Assembly: GCF_014930455.1 (NCBI RefSeq)
Contig: NZ_JAAIYO010000008.1
Coordinates: forward strand, 160,367 to 224,366
DNA from: Corallococcus soli
GTDB taxonomy: Bacteria; Myxococcota; Myxococcia; Myxococcales; Myxococcaceae
Length of the DNA: 64,000 bases
Direction of reading: 5' to 3'
This document shows, in pieces, positions 53,119-60,549 of this stretch (positions are counted from its first letter, which is position 1; each line of letters opens with the position of its first letter). The notes below the pieces were generated by a model that saw only the letters and a program-made list of their open reading frames with translations, was not told the origin of the DNA and ran no database searches. A program made the translations under genes and the position numbers.

Positions 53119-54309
53119 TTGCCGTTCTGGACCTCCTGCGCGGTCAGCAGGCAGGGGGGCAGGCCCCGTCCATGGGGAGGAAGCCAGTCAGGGGATGGAA
53201 TGCCCAATCTCCTCCGAGCGGTCGCGTCGTACCTCGGAGGAGACGGCATGGTTTTGCCCGGCAAGGGAATGAGTTGGAAGGAGTTCTTCAAGTCCCTCAA
53301 GGCCGAGTGGGGGCGGGACAACGTGGGCAACGTGGCGGGGGCGCTGACGTTCCAGGGCATCCTCGCGCTGTTCCCGTTCCTGCTGTTCCTCGTGTCGCTT
53401 GCGGGCGTGCTGATTGATCCGCGTCAGGCGCAGCTGCTCATCCAGGAGCTGTCGCGCGTGGCGCCCCAGGAGGTGACGAAGATCCTGGGCGAGCGCCTGG
53501 AGGCGCTGGCGAACAGCAACCCGGTGGGGCTGCTGACCATCGGTGGTGTGGGCGCCATCTGGGCGGCGTCGGGCGGCATCGTGGGGCTGATGGAGGCGCT
53601 CAACACGGTGTACGGCGTGGAGGAGAAGCGCCCGTTCTGGAAGAAGCGGGGCATCGCGCTCCTGACGACGCTGGGTACAGCGGTGGTCGCGGTGCTGGCG
53701 GCCATCGTCGCGGTCGTCACGCCGGCGGTGGCGAACAAGCTGGGCGAGCCGCTGGGGACGGTCGTCATGTGGCTGCGCCTGCCGGTGGCCGGGTTCCTGA
53801 TGATGTGCCTTTGGGCCGTGCTGTACTACGCGCTGCCGGACGTGAAGCAGAAGTTCAAGTTCATCACGCCGGGCTCGGTGGTGGGCGTGCTCATCTGGGT
53901 GGCCGCGTCGTGGGCGTTCTCCATGTACGTGGCGAACTTCGGCTCGTACGACGTGAACTACGGCGCCATCGGCGGCGTCATCGTGCTCCTTCTGTGGATG
54001 TGGATCTCCGCGCAGGTCATCCTGCTGGGCGCGGAGATCAACGGCATCCTGGAGCACAAGTCGCCGGACGGTAAGTCGCCGGGGCAGCGCGATCCGGACC
54101 AGGCCGGGGCGAACGTGACGAAGTCGGAGGCGGAGGCGGAGGGCGCGGACCTGCCCGGCGCCACCGACTTCCGACCCAAGCCGCCGGTGCCGCCGTACAG
54201 CACGGCGCCGGTGCCGCTGAGCAAGACGCCCCTGGCGGCGGCGGCGAAGGTGGCCGCGGGCGTGGGCCTGGGCGTGTTCCTGATGCGCCGCAAGTCCCCG
54301 GTGCGGTAG
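53119..54309 (+). CDS. YihY/BrkB-family inner membrane protein
   Basis: LTFQGILALFPFLLFLVSLAG and six TM helices typical of the YihY/virulence factor BrkB family. The start may be one of the internal Met codons. Confidence 0.8.
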   Translation: MPFWTSCAVSRQGGRPRPWGGSQSGDGMPNLLRAVASYLGGDGMVLPGKGMSWKEFFKSLKAEWGRDNVGNVAGALTFQGILALFPFLLFLVSLAGVLIDPRQAQLLIQELSRVAPQEVTKILGERLEALANSNPVGLLTIGGVGAIWAASGGIVGLMEALNTVYGVEEKRPFWKKRGIALLTTLGTAVVAVLAAIVAVVTPAVANKLGEPLGTVVMWLRLPVAGFLMMCLWAVLYYALPDVKQKFKFITPGSVVGVLIWVAASWAFSMYVANFGSYDVNYGAIGGVIVLLLWMWISAQVILLGAEINGILEHKSPDGKSPGQRDPDQAGANVTKSEAEAEGADLPGATDFRPKPPVPPYSTAPVPLSKTPLAAAAKVAAGVGLGVFLMRRKSPVR

Positions 54310-54372
54310 GGCCTGGGACACGGTGCCTGACGACGGCGGGCGGTCTCCTCGCGGAGGCCGCCCGTTGGCGTT

Positions 54373-54861
54373 TCAGGGCAGGGGCGTGGTGACGTAGTCC
54401 TTCCCGTCCGAGTGACAGCCGTGGCAGGTGTCGTGGGCGCGGCCGTAGTAGTTGTTGTCGTAGTTCGGGGCGAAGCCCTCGTAGAAGAGCCAGGTGTCCT
54501 TGCCGGCCCCGTCGGCGATCTTCACGTCCAGCGCGTGGCCCCGGAGGGTCTTGCCGTCGCTTTCGAACATCTCCTTGACGAGGATGCTCCCCACCGGGTG
54601 CGTGGCATTGCCATCGCGCAGCGAGCCCACGACGCGATCATTGAAGAAGACGCGGACCTTGCTGCCGTGGGGGGCGCGGGTCTCGTGGACGGTGGGCTCC
54701 GCGAGCCACGACTTGTAGCGACCGGAGCGCACGAAGTCGGTGATGCCCTGCTCGGAGGTGTCGAGTTCCTCGACGACGCCCAGGCCTTCGTCCACCGACG
54801 ATGAGGGGCCACAGGCGCTGGTGAGCAGCAGGACGGAGGTCAGCAGGAGGCGTGGGTGCAT
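54373..54861 (-). CDS. lipoprotein with a C-terminal CXXCH heme-binding motif (cytochrome P460 / c'-beta-like)
   Basis: Signal/lipobox (MHPRLLLTSVLLLTSAC). A single CHGCH motif near the C-terminus. ~160-aa size. Confidence 0.5.
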   Translation of the reverse strand: MHPRLLLTSVLLLTSACGPSSSVDEGLGVVEELDTSEQGITDFVRSGRYKSWLAEPTVHETRAPHGSKVRVFFNDRVVGSLRDGNATHPVGSILVKEMFESDGKTLRGHALDVKIADGAGKDTWLFYEGFAPNYDNNYYGRAHDTCHGCHSDGKDYVTTPLP

Positions 54862-54905
54862 TCCTGCGTTACGCGCGTGCGCCCGGTGGGGTTACGGGGA
54901 GCTGC

Positions 54906-55535
54906 TCAATGCTCTGAATAGGTGTGGGAGAGGAAGAAGGTCAGCGAGGTGACCGCCTCGGGGATGTCGATCTCGAACCAGCCCCGGTTCAGGTCCGCGG
55001 GGGTGACCTGGTAGTGGATGGTGCCGAATTCGTCGTCGAGGGAGAAGTCATCGACGTCGAAGATGGAGATCTCGATGGGGTTCTTGAGGAGGTTGGAGGA
55101 CACCACCTCACAGCTCCCCGAGGACCACCGGGGCTCTAGGCTCTGGACGGTTTCGGTCCGGGAGCGCTCGGGGGCGGAAGGGCAGCGCATCTCGACGACG
55201 ACATCCGGCGGTGAGCCATCCAGGTCCCAATCCGGATCCTCCTCGTCCCAGGGGTTGAAATCGAGGATGGAGGCCCGGATGGGCTGCACCTGCGTCCGCA
55301 TCACGCCCACGACGCAGCTCTGCCGCTGCAGGTGACAGACGGAGCCGCTGGCGCAGCCCTCACACGCGGCACCGCCCCTGAGTCCGCAGGCGTCGTCGCG
55401 CTGCTCGCGGATGCACTCGGCCTCCGCGGTGCAGCACCCGTCCCGGCAGTTGTCCGGGGTGCACTCCGAGGGCCCACAGGCAGGGAGCAACAGCGCGCAG
55501 GTCAGGGCGAGGAGGACGGAGGCGAGTCGATTCAT
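54906..55535 (-). CDS. cysteine-rich lipoprotein (Myxococcus-type Cys-rich repeats)
   Basis: Signal/lipobox (MNRLASVLLALTCALLLPAC). 16 Cys residues in the first ~60 mature residues. Confidence 0.5.
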   Translation of the reverse strand: MNRLASVLLALTCALLLPACGPSECTPDNCRDGCCTAEAECIREQRDDACGLRGGAACEGCASGSVCHLQRQSCVVGVMRTQVQPIRASILDFNPWDEEDPDWDLDGSPPDVVVEMRCPSAPERSRTETVQSLEPRWSSGSCEVVSSNLLKNPIEISIFDVDDFSLDDEFGTIHYQVTPADLNRGWFEIDIPEAVTSLTFFLSHTYSEH

Positions 55536-55549
55536 GACGGTTCAGGGAC

Positions 55550-56377
55550 TCACTTACTCCAACGCAGCAGCTTCGCGCGAGCCGTGTCGGAAAGTTGGGT
55601 CACCACGAACTGTTCGAGCAGTGAGGGATCCGGCTCCTTGCGCACGGGCTCCACCATGAAGTCCCAGGTCTCGAAGTCGTCCGCGTCTTGGAACAGGATC
55701 AGTCCCACCCCCATGCGCTGCGCCTCCGACGTGAGCCGAGCGATGTCCGAGTCGTCGGGGTTCTCCGGCGTCTCGAACAGCGCGAAGGCATGCGTAGCCG
55801 TTCTCGCGTGCGCGGCGGCCTCGAAGACGCCGGTGATGTTGAACTGCCAGCTCGGCTTGATTTCGAAGGTCCAGATGTCGAAGGTGCGGCCGGGCCAGTG
55901 GGTGAAGGTCCGCATGCTGATGGCGGTGATGTCGGGGCGGGTCCACACGCCCCCTGTCTTCTTCCCGCCCTGGTTCGCGGTGATCTCGATGTGGAAGTCG
56001 TGCAGCCCGCGCTCCTTCGTCCACTTCTCGTGCAGCACTTCCAGGCACGGGGCGTAGAGGTCGGCCTCCGCTCCCTCTTTGGGCTCGGGAGGAACCTCCA
56101 CGATGCTGCCGGTGAAGGGGTTCGTGTCGGAGGGTTTGATCTCCTTGACGATGTTGACGCTGCCGCCGCGCCCCCGGCCGCGGAGGATCTGTCCATCCTC
56201 GATGAGCTTTTCGCGCAGCCGCCAGTACTCGGATTCAGACCAACCCAACTCATTCATCAGGCTGGTGTTGCCGGAAGAGCCCCCGTTCGCGATCAAGACC
56301 TCGAGGAACTTCCGGCGCTGGGCTTCATCAATGGGGCGTCCTGCCATGGAAATGTCTCCTTGCGCTGGCTGCATCAA
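55550..56377 (-). CDS. winged-helix + PD-(D/E)xK nuclease-like protein (candidate effector of a two-gene cassette)
   Basis: N-terminal wHTH-like segment (RRKFLEVLIANGGSSGNTSLMNELGWSESEYWRLREKLIEDGQILRG). C-terminal half has the D...PD...ExK pattern (DFHIEI...RPDITAI...FEIKPS). Its ATG overlaps the upstream gene's stop (ATGA). GC is lower than the flanks. Confidence 0.55.
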   Translation of the reverse strand: MMQPAQGDISMAGRPIDEAQRRKFLEVLIANGGSSGNTSLMNELGWSESEYWRLREKLIEDGQILRGRGRGGSVNIVKEIKPSDTNPFTGSIVEVPPEPKEGAEADLYAPCLEVLHEKWTKERGLHDFHIEITANQGGKKTGGVWTRPDITAISMRTFTHWPGRTFDIWTFEIKPSWQFNITGVFEAAAHARTATHAFALFETPENPDDSDIARLTSEAQRMGVGLILFQDADDFETWDFMVEPVRKEPDPSLLEQFVVTQLSDTARAKLLRWSK

Positions 56378-57936
56378 GCCACAGCCCGGATGGATTTGCT
56401 TCGCTCCTCCTCCAGGAGCGCCAATGTCTTGCGGTACTCCGCAGCTTCCGCGAGCTGGGTCAGCTCGAACTCACCGTGGTGCTTGCGGACAGCCGTGGCG
56501 ATCTCCTCCAGGCTGACGCGGAAGAACTCCTTGCGCTCATTGATGCGATTGACGCGCCGGTCCGTGAACGTGCGGTGCAACGCGCTCTCCAGTGCGGGTG
56601 CATCCGAGGTCCGGATGATGGCGTGGACGTCGAACTCGAAGGGGACGGAGGCATCTCCCAGCTCGTCGATGCGGTCCTGCGGCACCAGCCGTCGCGTCAT
56701 GCCCAGCTTGTAGACGCCCTCTCCGAACGAGCCGATGTTGGAGATGACGTAGACGTGCCCCGTCCGCGTGAGCTGCGCCTGGGAGATGGCCCGCTGCTTC
56801 TCCAGGTCTTCGGCCACCCTCCGCTCCAGCTCCGCGATGCGCTCCAGCATCCGCTGCTGCTCGGGGCCCTTGGCCTTTTCGTAGTCCAGCCGGGCCCGGG
56901 CCAGGGCCTCCGCATCGCGCTTCGCTTCACGCTCTGCTTCCAGCTTCGCCTTCTCCAGCTCTCGCTGGGCGGCTTCCTCCTCCCGCATCTGCTCCCGGAT
57001 GCGGCGCTGCTCGTCTCGTTCTCGCTGAAGTCGCTCCGCGTACTCATAGGCCAACCGCAATTCATCTGACTTGAGTGAGACGTAGCTGCTCGCGATGGTG
57101 CAGTGTTGTGAATTCGTTAGATCATTGATTGCGTCCGCTGCCTTTTTGAGGCGAGCTTCCATCGTCTTGATGTTTTTATAGGTCACCTTGGCGATGCAGG
57201 CGTCAGCCTCGCCGTTGAAGGCTCTGAGCATCAGCTTCAGTGTGCGATCAATCTGCTTCTTGCCTTCGGCTTTGCTGCCGTTGACCTCCCATTGGATGGC
57301 GCACGTTGCTGCCTGTTTGTTCTGCAACATGGACTTCTGTGACTTACGAATCTCGTCCAGGCGCGACTCATATTCGGCCACGGTGGAGAAGGCATAGACT
57401 GGCTTGTAGAAGGCGCAGGCCAGTAGGATGGTTTCCTCATCCAGAGGGCGAAGCTGTTCGCGCAGTCGTACGATGGATTCTTCCAGCTCGTGGCATTCCA
57501 TGCGCAGTTGCTGGCGTTTTGCCTCTGCATCTGCAACGGAGCGCGCGGCGGCCACGGTTGCCCGCGATGCATCTTCGTGCATGCGGTGACAGGCTGCGGC
57601 AACTTGCTTCCGCTCGACAGCGATGGCTCGTGATGAATCCGCTTTCGCTCGAGCGAGGTGGGCTTCCAATCGCGCTTGTTCGTCCAGCCGTTCCCTGGCA
57701 GCTGCGTTGCGGGATTGAGCCAATTCCTGGGCTGCGCGATGTCGCTCGGTCTCAAGTGCAGCCGTCGCGGCCTCTTGCGTCAGAGCAATGGCATCCTTGA
57801 GCCGTCGCTGTTCGGCCTCCAGATCCACAATGGGCCTGAATCGCTCCTGTTCGGCCCGTAGCTCGCGCCTCGTCCGGCTCGCCACTCCCGCGAGAATCAG
57901 GACCAACAATCCCAGCCCGATGGCAACGATCGACAT
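56374..57936 (-). CDS. DUF4041-like membrane-anchored coiled-coil protein with a C-terminal T5orf172 (GIY-YIG-superfamily) domain
   Basis: N-terminal TM helix (IVAIGLGLLVLILAGVA), ~150-aa coiled coil, a DUF4041-like middle region, and a C-terminal GHVYVISNIGSFGEGVYKLGMTRR...PFEFDVHAII...EFF domain. Markedly lower GC (~53%) around 57.05-57.55 kb. Confidence 0.7.
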   Translation of the reverse strand: MSIVAIGLGLLVLILAGVASRTRRELRAEQERFRPIVDLEAEQRRLKDAIALTQEAATAALETERHRAAQELAQSRNAAARERLDEQARLEAHLARAKADSSRAIAVERKQVAAACHRMHEDASRATVAAARSVADAEAKRQQLRMECHELEESIVRLREQLRPLDEETILLACAFYKPVYAFSTVAEYESRLDEIRKSQKSMLQNKQAATCAIQWEVNGSKAEGKKQIDRTLKLMLRAFNGEADACIAKVTYKNIKTMEARLKKAADAINDLTNSQHCTIASSYVSLKSDELRLAYEYAERLQRERDEQRRIREQMREEEAAQRELEKAKLEAEREAKRDAEALARARLDYEKAKGPEQQRMLERIAELERRVAEDLEKQRAISQAQLTRTGHVYVISNIGSFGEGVYKLGMTRRLVPQDRIDELGDASVPFEFDVHAIIRTSDAPALESALHRTFTDRRVNRINERKEFFRVSLEEIATAVRKHHGEFELTQLAEAAEYRKTLALLEEERSKSIRAVA

Positions 57937-57963
57937 GGCGTTCCCCCACCGCAGCGGGAAAGT

Positions 57964-58242
57964 CTAGTTCAGGCACTCAGCGAACGCATCTGCCCCTCGG
58001 CGGGAGGGTCTTCGCGGACCACCACGGGCAGCTCTGCCGCCTGTTCTTCCCGTAACAGCGTGTCCACGCGCGCGATGGTTGCTCAGCCGCTCGAAGATGA
58101 GGCCGGGGAGTTCATCCACCAGCCGCAGCGACGTCCTGGCGGTGTGCCGAAAGTGGAGGAGCCGGTTGGACGCGCTCAGGTCCAGGAGCCGCGTGCGCTG
58201 CCGTTCAAGCTCCTTCAGCAGGGCCGGATCTTGTGGAGTCAT
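57964..58242 (-). pseudogene. N-terminal remnant of a DUF4011-type superfamily-1 helicase gene (truncated/frameshifted)
   Basis: LLDLSASNRLLHFRHTARTSLRLVDELPGLIFERL is the characteristic N-terminus of DUF4011 helicase-nuclease proteins. The ORF then degenerates and stops after 92 codons, abutting the start of the DUF4041 gene. Confidence 0.5.
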
Positions 58243-58384
58243 CGGTGCGTGCCCCTCCCCGGGCCGTCACGGGAGGGCGACCTGGCACGCATTGTTCTGA
58301 CGCATTCCGCAGGGTGGGGGCATTCCCCGAGAGGGGTATGGACACGCCACGGAATTCAGCGTGGCGACGTCAGGGCCCGATGAC

Positions 58385-58852
58385 TCAGTCGCAGTTTTCA
58401 AACACCAGGATGCCTGGGCCGTACGGGGTCAGCACGGGGACCCAGGCCTCGGTGACTTCATCCAGGCGCTCCCGGTCCAGGGCCAGGTGGAGTCTCTCTC
58501 CCAAGACCTGATCGGGGTGGGTCGCGTGCCACATCGGAACGCGGCTGATGAGGAGGGCCAGTCGCTCGAAGTGCGAGGGCGTCCAGACCTCACGCATGTA
58601 GGGATGGCCCCGGAACCCTTTCTTGAAGAAGTCGAAGAGCGCGTGCTCCACGTTGAACACTTCATCGTCGTCTGGATCCAGACTCAAATCGACGGAATGG
58701 AGCGGAACAAAGAAGCCCTCTGCCCACCGCATTTCGTTCAGGTGCCCATCGCACTGGTTCCCATACATCACACCCGTGGGGGCCTGGACGATGGCGCCAA
58801 GCCCAAAGGGCCGCAGGCCATCCGGGTTCAAGAAGACATAGTGGGGCGCCAT
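58385..58852 (-). CDS. hypothetical protein (unknown function)
   Basis: 155-aa clean ORF with a non-random composition (W/F/Y/H-rich: MAPHYVFLNPDG...HPYMREVWTPSHFERLALL). GC ~60%, below the flanks. No recognisable motif. Confidence 0.45.
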   Translation of the reverse strand: MAPHYVFLNPDGLRPFGLGAIVQAPTGVMYGNQCDGHLNEMRWAEGFFVPLHSVDLSLDPDDDEVFNVEHALFDFFKKGFRGHPYMREVWTPSHFERLALLISRVPMWHATHPDQVLGERLHLALDRERLDEVTEAWVPVLTPYGPGILVFENCD

Positions 58853-58877
58853 GGCTCCCTCCTCGTAGCACTTCAAG

Positions 58878-58925
58878 CCCACGAAAATCGCCGCCTCGCT
58901 TCCGGAAGTACCGGAGGCGGGCGGC
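58878..58925 (-). terminator. rho-independent terminator downstream of the ABC-F gene
   Basis: Imperfect GC-rich hairpin (CCGCCTCGCTTCCGG-AAGTA-CCGGAGGCGGGCGG) followed on the minus strand by ATTTTCG. Confidence 0.45.
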
Positions 58926-58950
58926 GATGGGCCCTTCGCTTGAACGAGGC

Positions 58951-60549
58951 CTACCGGCGCTTCATCGCCGCGTCGGCGTGCTTCTCACGGAACTCGGAGT
59001 AGGGGCCGTTGAAGTCGAGCACTTCCTTGCCCGCCTCCATGCTCCAGATGCGCGTGGCGACCTCGGAGATGAGCTCCTGGTCGTGCGTGACGACGATGAC
59101 CGTGCCCTCGAACTTCTGGAGGCCTTCGGCCAGCGCCGCGATGGACTCCAGGTCCAGGTGGTTCGTCGGCTCGTCCAGGATGAGCACGTTGTCCTGCATG
59201 ATCATCAGCTTCGACAGGAGCACGCGCACCGTCTCACCACCGGAGAGCGTGTCCGTGTTCTTCATCCGCTCCTCGCCCGAGAACAGCATCCGGCCCAGCA
59301 CGCCGGAGATCTCCTCGTTCGTCAGCTTCTCGCTGATCTCCCGCAGGTAGCCGAAGCAGGTCGTGCCCTTGTAGATGACGCCGTGGTGGTCCTGCGGCAG
59401 GTAGCCCACCGACGCCTGGTGGCCCCAGGTGATGGTGCCACCGTCCGGCTCCGTCTTCCCGGCCAGCATCTTCACCAGCGTGGACTTGCCCACGGCGTTA
59501 CGGCCGATCACGCAGATGCGCTCGCCCTTGCAGACCAGCCCGGTGAACGGCTTGATGACCTGCACGCCGTCGTAGGACTTCTTCAGGCCCTCGAACATCA
59601 GCGTCTGCCGGCCGCTGACCACCTTCTGGTCGAACCGGATGAAGGGCCGCGCGATGTTCGAGCGCTTCAGGTCCTCCGTCTTCAGCTTGTCGATCTGCTT
59701 GATGCGGCTCTGCACCTGCGAGGCGCGCGTGCCGGCGTGGAAGCGCGCCACGAAGTCCTGCAACTGGAGGATCTTCTTCTTCTTCTCCTCCGTCTCCGAC
59801 TCCACCCGGGTCCGCAGCTGCGACTTCTGCCGGACCATGTCGTCGTAACCACCCGTGTACTGGATGATGGTCTCGTAATCGATGTCCGCGATGTGCGTGC
59901 AGATGGAGTTCAGGAAGTGCCGGTCGTGGCTGATGGTGATCAGCACGCCCTCGTAGTCGTGGAGGAAGTTCTCCAGCCAGCGGATGGAATCGATGTCCAG
60001 GTTGTTCGTGGGCTCGTCGAGCAGCAGCCCGTCCGGCTTGCCGAACAGCGCCTGCGCGAGCAACACGCGCAGCTTCAGGCCGCCGGTGAGCTGGCGCATG
60101 GGCTCTTCGTGGAAGGCCTCGTCGATGCCAAGGCCCGCCAGCAGCGTGGCCGCGTCGCTCTCCGCGGAGTAGCCGTCCTCTTCCGCGATGACGCCTTCCA
60201 GCTCACCCAGCCGGTTGCCGTCCTCCTCGGTGATGTCCGACTTGGCGAGCAGCTTGTTCTTCTCATCCATCGCCGCCCACAGGTGGCGGTTGCCCATCAG
60301 CACCACGTCCAGGACGCGGTCGTTCTCGTAGCGGAAGTGGTCCTGGCGCAGGATGCCCAGCTTGCGCGGGCGGATGATGTCGCCCATGTCCTGCTCCTCG
60401 TCACCGGCGAGGATCTTCATGAAGGTGGACTTGCCGGCACCGTTCGGTCCGGTCAGGCCGTAGCGACGGCCCGGCGAGAAGGCGACGTTGACCTCCTCGA
60501 AAAGCTTCTTGGGCCCATAGGCCTTGGAGACGTTGATGACGTTGAACAT
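58951..60549 (-). CDS. uup: ABC-F family ATPase (Uup/EttA-like, tandem ABC domains, no TM)
   Basis: Two Walker A motifs (GPNGAGKST and GRNAVGKST), two signature motifs (LSGGLKLRV / LSGGETVRV) and a linker. ATG at 60549. Confidence 0.9.
   Translation of the reverse strand: MFNVINVSKAYGPKKLFEEVNVAFSPGRRYGLTGPNGAGKSTFMKILAGDEEQDMGDIIRPRKLGILRQDHFRYENDRVLDVVLMGNRHLWAAMDEKNKLLAKSDITEEDGNRLGELEGVIAEEDGYSAESDAATLLAGLGIDEAFHEEPMRQLTGGLKLRVLLAQALFGKPDGLLLDEPTNNLDIDSIRWLENFLHDYEGVLITISHDRHFLNSICTHIADIDYETIIQYTGGYDDMVRQKSQLRTRVESETEEKKKKILQLQDFVARFHAGTRASQVQSRIKQIDKLKTEDLKRSNIARPFIRFDQKVVSGRQTLMFEGLKKSYDGVQVIKPFTGLVCKGERICVIGRNAVGKSTLVKMLAGKTEPDGGTITWGHQASVGYLPQDHHGVIYKGTTCFGYLREISEKLTNEEISGVLGRMLFSGEERMKNTDTLSGGETVRVLLSKLMIMQDNVLILDEPTNHLDLESIAALAEGLQKFEGTVIVVTHDQELISEVATRIWSMEAGKEVLDFNGPYSEFREKHADAAMKRR

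Follow-up and report, generated by a model that had tools for sequence, protein, structure and literature searches.

A SNIPE homologue with an apparently exchanged N-terminal module and a predicted solitary winged-helix nuclease in a probable uup-yihY defence hotspot of Corallococcus soli

PD-lambda-1 was discovered in the Escherichia coli screen of Vassallo et al. (2022) and was renamed SNIPE, a single inner-membrane-anchored GIY-YIG nuclease that cuts phage DNA during injection (Saxton et al., Nature 2026, PMC13190303). One protein suffices for defence in E. coli, its DUF4041 domain binds both DNA and the phage tape-measure protein, and an N-terminal transmembrane anchor is present in 66% of the homologues. 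Diversity within the family lies in the N-terminal region and in DUF4041, the parts that are tied to recognition of phage and host factors (PMC13190303). Here we describe a SNIPE homologue (gene A, positions 56374..57936, minus strand) and an adjacent gene for a predicted winged-helix PD-(D/E)xK nuclease (gene B, 55550..56347, minus strand) in a stretch of 64,000 nucleotides of Corallococcus soli (contig NZ_JAAIYO010000008.1, positions 160,367 to 224,366), referred to below as the window. The first-pass annotation of this DNA had proposed that the two genes form an undescribed two-gene defence cassette. We consider it highly probable instead that the interval between uup and yihY is a defence hotspot in which gene A is a SNIPE without a partner, gene B is a solitary nuclease, a third system, Hhe, has been destroyed, and a tract of a foreign SNIPE allele has been taken up.

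Gene A encodes 520 amino acids (aa), and its open reading frame (ORF), PADLOC and Pfam matches and an AlphaFold model gave the domain order transmembrane anchor, long helix, DUF4041, helical linker and GIY-YIG domain (T5orf172/MUG113). The PADLOC PD-Lambda-1 model PDLC03977 matched the protein with E=4.8e-150, aligning aa 92-514 to profile positions 55-478 of 496, and a second model, PDLC03976, matched with E=6.1e-150. The Pfam core of DUF4041, which Pfam currently names 'SNIPE', was found over the complete profile at aa 234-289 (PF13250, E=3.7e-21; 57070..57237, minus strand), and an alignment of gene A homologues showed a conserved block around it at aa 165-300. The GIY-YIG-superfamily nuclease domain at aa 393-485 (56482..56760, minus strand) was matched by PF10544 (T5orf172) and PF13455 (MUG113) with E values of about 1e-17. 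Its core residues G393, Y396, K410, G412, R415, R416, N463 and E470 were all present and were invariant in 18 homologues, and E470 would be the counterpart of E414 of E. coli SNIPE. The N-terminus, read directly from the sequence, was found to be hydrophobic, MSIVAIGLGLLVLILAGVA, with a 17-residue stretch at aa 3-19 followed by RTRRELR, and a single-pass membrane anchor is predicted at codons 3-20 (57877..57930, minus strand). In the AlphaFold model, which was built on 18 homologues, one helix spans aa 3-30 and another runs unbroken for 117 residues, from 57 to 173; the DUF4041 region (186-281) is alpha/beta, the linker (283-389) is helical and the GIY-YIG domain (394-492) is rich in beta structure. 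The earlier description of gene A as a membrane anchor, a coiled coil, DUF4041 and T5orf172 was borne out by the Pfam matches and by the 117-residue helix. The protein was 100% identical to one of Corallococcus sp. ZKHCc1 1396, and more than 7,590 homologues were found in a homologue search.

By these matches gene A appears to be a new member of SNIPE, a known and mechanistically understood single-gene system. It shares with the E. coli protein the transmembrane anchor, the variable helical N-terminal region, DUF4041, the helical linker and the C-terminal GIY-YIG domain, and, as in the rest of the family, most of its diversification falls in the N-terminal part and in DUF4041. It differs from E. 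coli SNIPE in its myxobacterial host, in having no known link to ManYZ, and in being a natural chimera whose N-terminal and DUF4041 module has been exchanged relative to sister genomes. By analogy with SNIPE, gene A would cleave phage DNA in Corallococcus, DUF4041 binding DNA and the tape-measure protein and the GIY-YIG domain cutting the injected phage DNA, and no partner protein would be needed.

In a survey centred on gene B, in which one genome per species was scanned, 80 loci with gene B homologues were returned. A SNIPE homologue lay beside the gene B homologue in one of the 80, and this sole case was the sister genome PMG_225, a metagenome-assembled genome (MAG; locus L001) whose gene B is 95% identical to that of the window. 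In the opposite direction, a B-family ORF was found in none of 83 SNIPE-centred loci, 59 of which have at least 900 nt of sequence downstream. The place occupied by gene B in the window was filled by SIR2_2 or DUF3800 genes in other Corallococcus species, SNIPE stood alone at a different chromosomal site in M. xanthus, and gene B homologues stood alone among housekeeping genes in M. fulvus, Archangium, a Binatia MAG and a Bryobacteraceae MAG. These findings indicate that gene A and gene B are independent and that gene B is not the regular partner of SNIPE. They also speak against an undescribed cassette on two grounds that the first-pass annotation had itself named beforehand as incompatible with it: the genes are not syntenic in other genomes, and gene A already bears a name, the PADLOC check having returned the single-gene system PD-Lambda-1 (SNIPE; PMC13190303).

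The two minus-strand ORFs were found where they had first been placed, at 56374..57936 and 55550..56377, the latter being the maximal ORF of gene B (275 aa). The ATGA overlap and translational coupling that had been read at their junction were not recovered. The junction on the minus strand is cTTGATGc, in which the TGA at 56376..56374 is the stop codon of gene A, and TTG 56377, ATG 56374 and ATG 56347 are candidate starts for gene B. Three features favour ATG 56347, namely the N-termini of the homologues, which are typically 264-270 aa long, the 265-aa orthologue that NCBI annotates in Corallococcus sp. bb12-1, and an AAGGAGA box that ends 8 nt before this codon. The most likely start judged from these features is ATG 56347, which would give a product of 265 aa and leave a spacer of 26 nt (56348..56373, minus strand) in which gene B has its own Shine-Dalgarno box; identical spacing is annotated in bb12-1. 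Consensus scans of the locus for promoters and terminators returned nothing above chance and are uninformative for such a high-GC organism.

No other 3395-nt window of the 64 kb had a GC content as low as that of the region (0.630; z=-4.9 relative to non-overlapping windows, whose mean was 0.712). The first-pass estimate of 53-60% for the whole region, however, holds only for the N-terminal half of gene A, in which GC was 0.589 overall and fell to 0.535-0.55 in the lowest 400-nt windows, at 56951-57500, compared to 0.660 in the C-terminal half of gene A and 0.638 in gene B. The GC content at third codon positions (GC3) was 0.669 in the N-terminal half of gene A, 0.861 in its C-terminal half, 0.865 in gene B and 0.92-0.97 in the flanking housekeeping genes. 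The N-terminal half of gene A is the real GC3 outlier; gene B and the C-terminal half of gene A are only mildly below the flanks. In the sister genomes PMG_225 and bb12-1 (locus L165) the GC3 of the equivalent N-terminal part was approximately 0.89.

Comparison with these two genomes points to the same part of the gene. Over nucleotides 1-960 of gene A, the window was 43-83% identical to them, and from there through the end of gene B the identity was 87-100%, while PMG_225 and bb12-1 were 85-98% identical to one another throughout the stretch. At the protein level, aa 311-520 were nearest the PMG_225 and bb12-1 alleles (96-99% identity), and aa 41-310 were nearest another allele class (P0122-P0124 and P0127; 60-78% versus 38-69%). 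Gene A is thus a natural chimera in which approximately the first 310-320 codons belong to a foreign allele, swapped in by recombination, with a breakpoint near 56977-57036, and in which the linker and GIY-YIG half shares 96-100% identity with the sister genomes. By GC3, nucleotide identity and protein segments, the foreign module of lower GC comprises codons 1-320 (56977..57936, minus strand), with the transmembrane anchor, the long helix and DUF4041. The low GC of the region is due mainly to these first approximately 310 codons and reflects replacement of the specificity-determining N-terminus and DUF4041 of SNIPE by a foreign allele. Upstream of gene A, identity to PMG_225 was 79% back to the junction of a deletion in the neighbouring Hhe gene and 90.6% beyond it. 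This step in identity suggests that the foreign tract extends from approximately 58068 to 56977 and that its left end is the Hhe deletion junction. Since the two coincide, we infer that a single event may both have swapped the SNIPE module and deleted Hhe, through a crossover between homologous sequences of the conserved linker of SNIPE, together with an illegitimate join within Hhe.

The product of gene B belongs to an unannotated family. A winged helix at aa ~5-66 is followed by a disordered linker (70-88), a PD-(D/E)xK domain of restriction endonuclease (REase)-like type (~94-232) and two C-terminal helices. The predicted structure was confident and showed the canonical E...PD...(D/E)xK motif on an alpha-beta-beta-beta-alpha-beta core, and E94, PD139 and E162xK164 were invariant across 34 diverse homologues, down to 33% identity. 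The winged helix and the PD...ExK motif that had been noted at first sight are upheld by these invariant residues and by the core of the model. The conserved residues argue for a live active site and thus for gene B as a predicted active PD-(D/E)xK nuclease. Structure searches returned matches to the REase-like fold; Foldseek matches against the PDB were weak, with none at E<=0.001. The best fold matches of the winged helix were of Z-alpha and MarR/ArsR types, and DpnI lay outside the top 60. No matches to gene B were found among the Pfam, NCBIfam, PADLOC and PHROGs models, and a profile search of PDB sequences with the gene B alignment returned no solved relative and nothing useful.

The nearest described proteins are restriction enzymes. 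Helbrecht et al. (2024, PMC11037411) described type IV REases with winged-helix fusions, among them DpnI-like PD-(D/E)XK-winged helix, winged helix-GIY-YIG, PUA-winged helix-HNH and PLD-winged helix enzymes. Gene B resembles these in combining a winged helix and a restriction-type nuclease in one polypeptide, and in being usually solitary, without a cognate methyltransferase; it differs from them in domain order, and homology of its winged helix to that of DpnI could not be demonstrated. With Mrr-type enzymes (an Mrr_N winged helix and an Mrr_cat PD-(D/E)xK domain) and Shedu (a variable N-terminal domain and a DUF4263 PD-(D/E)xK domain) it shares the general plan of an N-terminal DNA-sensing domain and a C-terminal PD-(D/E)xK domain in one stand-alone protein. 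Membership in either group is unsupported by sequence, as no match was found to Mrr_N, Mrr_cat or DUF4263 in Pfam at E<=1, or to the PADLOC Shedu and mREase models. Assignment as an END nuclease (PMC12191111) was rejected, since END proteins consist of PLD and inactive EndoIII proteins. By analogy, gene B is most likely a solitary DNA-sensing nuclease that acts on its own, comparable most closely to a type-IV-like restriction enzyme without a methyltransferase.

A profile search of 1.84 billion representatives returned 3,010 matches to the gene B family at E<=1e-3, 1,350 at E<=1e-10 and 577 at E<=1e-30, and the family comprises approximately 580 clusters at 50% identity (E<=1e-30). Winged helices were counted in the 142 newly returned sequences among 150 listed family representatives. 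One winged helix was found in 100 of these, two in 32, three in four, five in one and six in three, and in the remaining two the counting criterion registered none; some relatives carried an additional XRE-type helix-turn-helix (HTH). In two of the six-copy relatives (P0253 and P0269), the tandem winged helices of the gene B type were fused to a ThsB-like TIR domain (E=4e-47 and 2e-39, respectively) and no PD-(D/E)xK domain was present; in other members, two to six copies precede the nuclease. These two proteins share the ThsB-type TIR with ThsB of Thoeris, whereas gene B itself has the nuclease and no TIR, and the comparison points to an effector swap within the family from nuclease to Thoeris-type TIR. 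Tentatively, and with somewhat less than an even chance, the family may be an undescribed stand-alone immune family in which one to six winged helices (GNxxL...YWxxR...GRGxGGS) recognize nucleic acid that is foreign or modified and trigger a PD-(D/E)xK or a Thoeris-type TIR effector.

The 80 gene B loci span Myxococcota, Acidobacteriota, Proteobacteria, Actinomycetota, Planctomycetota and other phyla. Neighbours related to defence or restriction-modification (RM) included a PbeA-like helicase in one Rhodococcus lineage, HsdR, an MmeI-like type IIG enzyme, an SNF2 helicase, a large N6/N4 methylase, BrxHI, type IV and AspBHI-like REases and several PDC candidates, together with two integrases. 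DNA methyltransferases were few among the 146 immediate-neighbour ORFs (the MmeI-like IIG enzyme, one large N6_N4 methyltransferase and one type I methyltransferase), and ORF clustering around the gene B loci revealed no conserved partner. Full-length Hhe adjoins gene B homologues in three independent lineages. A specific partnership of Hhe with gene B was considered and rejected, the matches in Rhodococcus being to a different SF1 helicase, and these adjacencies are read as co-residence in hotspots. The family was absent from 50,697 phage records, and two weak matches were found on plasmids.

Three settings of gene B homologues were observed besides. Four Rhodococcus/Rhodococcoides loci (L050, L056, L061 and L064) had a conserved order of three genes: an SF1 helicase with 26% identity to the C-terminal third of Hhe, a PbeA-like SF2 helicase of approximately 585 aa, and a gene B homologue 47-116 bp downstream. 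The three, gene B homologue included, could make up a multi-gene system peculiar to this lineage. In the Binatia MAG (locus L168, 4886-12435) the homologue lies within a classic, conserved cluster of housekeeping genes, with recA/recX on one side and alaS on the other, which indicates that members of the family can insert singly and at a distance from defence islands. In Archangium violaceum (locus L166, 8001-8795) the homologue had a GC3 of 0.54, compared to approximately 0.77-0.97 for myxobacterial genes in the other loci examined, which suggests recent horizontal acquisition. The most economical reading of gene B is a horizontally mobile endonuclease that senses DNA and stands alone.

The interval that holds genes A and B is bounded by conserved genes on both sides, as had been recognized at first. 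The left flank is a uup-like ABC-F ATPase gene (58951..60549, minus strand; GC3 0.957), and uup orthologues of 532 aa with two ABC_tran domains were found at the equivalent position in C. coralloides (locus L081), bb12-1 and C. exercitus (locus L167). The right flank (53119..55535 as a whole) consists of genes for a C2-domain-like lipoprotein (54906..55535, minus strand, 209 aa) and a cytochrome-P460-like protein (54373..54861, minus strand, 162 aa), and of yihY/BrkB (53119..54309, plus strand). This trio bounds the hotspot in PMG_225, C. coralloides, bb12-1 and C. exercitus. The C2-like lipoprotein and the P460-like protein formed a conserved pair beside yihY/BrkB in all Corallococcus loci examined, and in the window the ATG of the lipoprotein gene lies only 14 nt past the stop codon of gene B.

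Between these flanks the gene content differed from genome to genome. In bb12-1 the order was uup, DUF6210, an intact Hhe (1727 aa), SNIPE, gene B, a pentapeptide-repeat gene on the reverse strand, the lipoprotein genes and yihY. In PMG_225 Hhe was likewise intact (1727 aa) and the DUF6210 segment was missing. In C. coralloides Hhe and SNIPE were followed by SIR2_2 and other genes in the gene B slot, and in C. exercitus there was no Hhe and SNIPE was followed by DUF3800 (the PADLOC candidate PDC-M04A) and other genes. Across Corallococcus, DUF6210 and Hhe were thus each present or absent, SNIPE was constant and the downstream cargo was variable. The stretch from uup to the lipoprotein genes and yihY would accordingly be a variable defence hotspot that holds several independent co-oriented genes rather than one system, and in the Corallococcus clade gene B would occupy the cargo slot downstream of SNIPE. 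An anti-phage region shaped by horizontal transfer, as the first-pass annotation had it, is supported in this form.

Hhe is a DUF4011 SF1 helicase with a C-terminal nuclease (PADLOC Hhe/PDC-S37; NCBIfam Hhe_antiphage), and intact copies of 1727-1732 aa were found at the equivalent position in PMG_225, bb12-1 and C. coralloides. The suspected DUF4011 helicase remnant next to gene A proved to be a true remnant of Hhe, a pseudogene with a 92-aa ORF (57964..58242, minus strand; NCBIfam Hhe_antiphage 2.2e-10, Pfam DUF4011 1.8e-06). It retains the first 57 codons of Hhe, which are followed by a frameshifted tail, and the last ~33 codons of Hhe persist in another frame; DUF4011, the SF1 helicase (AAA_11/AAA_12) and the C-terminal nuclease (MTES_1575) are not intact. 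Alignment to the intact 1727-aa Hhe of PMG_225 showed an internal deletion of approximately 4.9 kb with CGCGC microhomology near 58068-58075. Hhe is a further single-gene system of the hotspot, destroyed in the window by this deletion. Between the remnant and uup lies the DUF6210 segment (58346..58876, minus strand), a 531-bp indel bounded by an imperfect 10-bp direct repeat, TTTCGTGGGC / TTCCGTGGC. Its ORF is likely 58385..58852 (155 aa, with an AGGAGG box) and matched Pfam DUF6210 at 8.9e-18. It also occurs in bb12-1, at 70% aa identity; PMG_225 and C. coralloides lack the segment. The ORF had no match in PHROGs, NCBIfam or PADLOC, and nothing on DUF6210 was found in a literature search.

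Several observations weigh against the reading of a hotspot with a partner-free SNIPE and a solitary nuclease. The myxobacterial SNIPE is assigned by homology to the E. coli protein, and gene B is no more than a plausible candidate for a stand-alone immune nuclease. PADLOC has no model that matches gene B, and at many of its loci the adjoining genes are of the housekeeping type (AspRS, GuaA, methylmalonyl-CoA mutase and recA-recX/alaS). Genes A and B are co-oriented and 26 nt apart without a terminator-like signal in between, and three Corallococcus genomes (the window, bb12-1 and PMG_225) have preserved them in this order. In a Caulobacter MAG (locus L077, 6241-6942), a 233-aa ORF with HNH_repeat and T5orf172/MUG113 domains lies 59 bp upstream of a gene B homologue; by phmmer with the T5orf172 domain of gene A, this was the only other adjacency of T5orf172 and gene B among the 80 loci. 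Co-transcription of the two genes and some local functional interplay may yet occur.

A serious alternative, which we consider unlikely, is that gene B has no part in immunity and is a solitary selfish (homing-like) nuclease, or a nuclease of DNA repair or recombination, that came to lie in the hotspot by chance. Such a gene could well stand alone between housekeeping genes in many lineages, as between recA-recX and alaS in Binatia, and could show the patchy distribution over many phyla, the atypical composition in Archangium and the lack of a PADLOC match described above. It would be harder to reconcile with the recurrent defence and RM neighbours in independent lineages, which include the rare Hhe three times, or with a ThsB-type TIR effector swapped onto the same winged-helix array, a change typical of immune proteins. 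The absence of the family from phage records and its near absence from plasmids also count against a selfish element, and no intein, intron or target-gene context was seen.

It is quite improbable that A and B are a genuine two-gene defence cassette, at least in the Corallococcus clade, in which B would either supply a second effector or bind DNA as a regulator or adaptor of SNIPE. The common strand, the 26-nt spacer without a terminator-like signal, the adjacency retained in three related genomes and the Caulobacter case are what a cassette would leave behind. The three genomes, however, are close relatives (bb12-1 and PMG_225 share 85-98% nucleotide identity) and for this reason count as one evolutionary event, and outside the clade co-occurrence was not found (1/80 and 0/83 loci). 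Moreover, the SNIPE of E. coli acts without a second protein (PMC13190303), unrelated genes fill the gene B slot in congeners, and the gene B family is widespread without SNIPE. Hardly to be credited is a winged-helix transcription factor with a catalytically dead nuclease fold that regulates the island, since, for all that the winged helix matches mostly transcription regulators (MarR, ArsR, IclR) and some relatives add an XRE-type HTH, E94, D139, E162 and K164 are invariant in 34 sequences down to 33% identity and there is no fixed neighbour to regulate.

With the uup-yihY interval read as a defence hotspot that holds a partner-free SNIPE and a solitary nuclease, the failure of the two-gene reading spares cloning effort aimed at the wrong unit. 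The locus is a clear case of a myxobacterial SNIPE that lies in a defined hotspot of the chromosome, the content of which turns over between Corallococcus species. The gene B family, unannotated and reasonably large, could reasonably be a new family of single-gene defence or of type-IV-like restriction. The natural allele swap of SNIPE affects only the N-terminal region and DUF4041; on a micro-evolutionary scale it supports the adapter model, and the swapped alleles would serve as ready-made chimeras for testing specificity.

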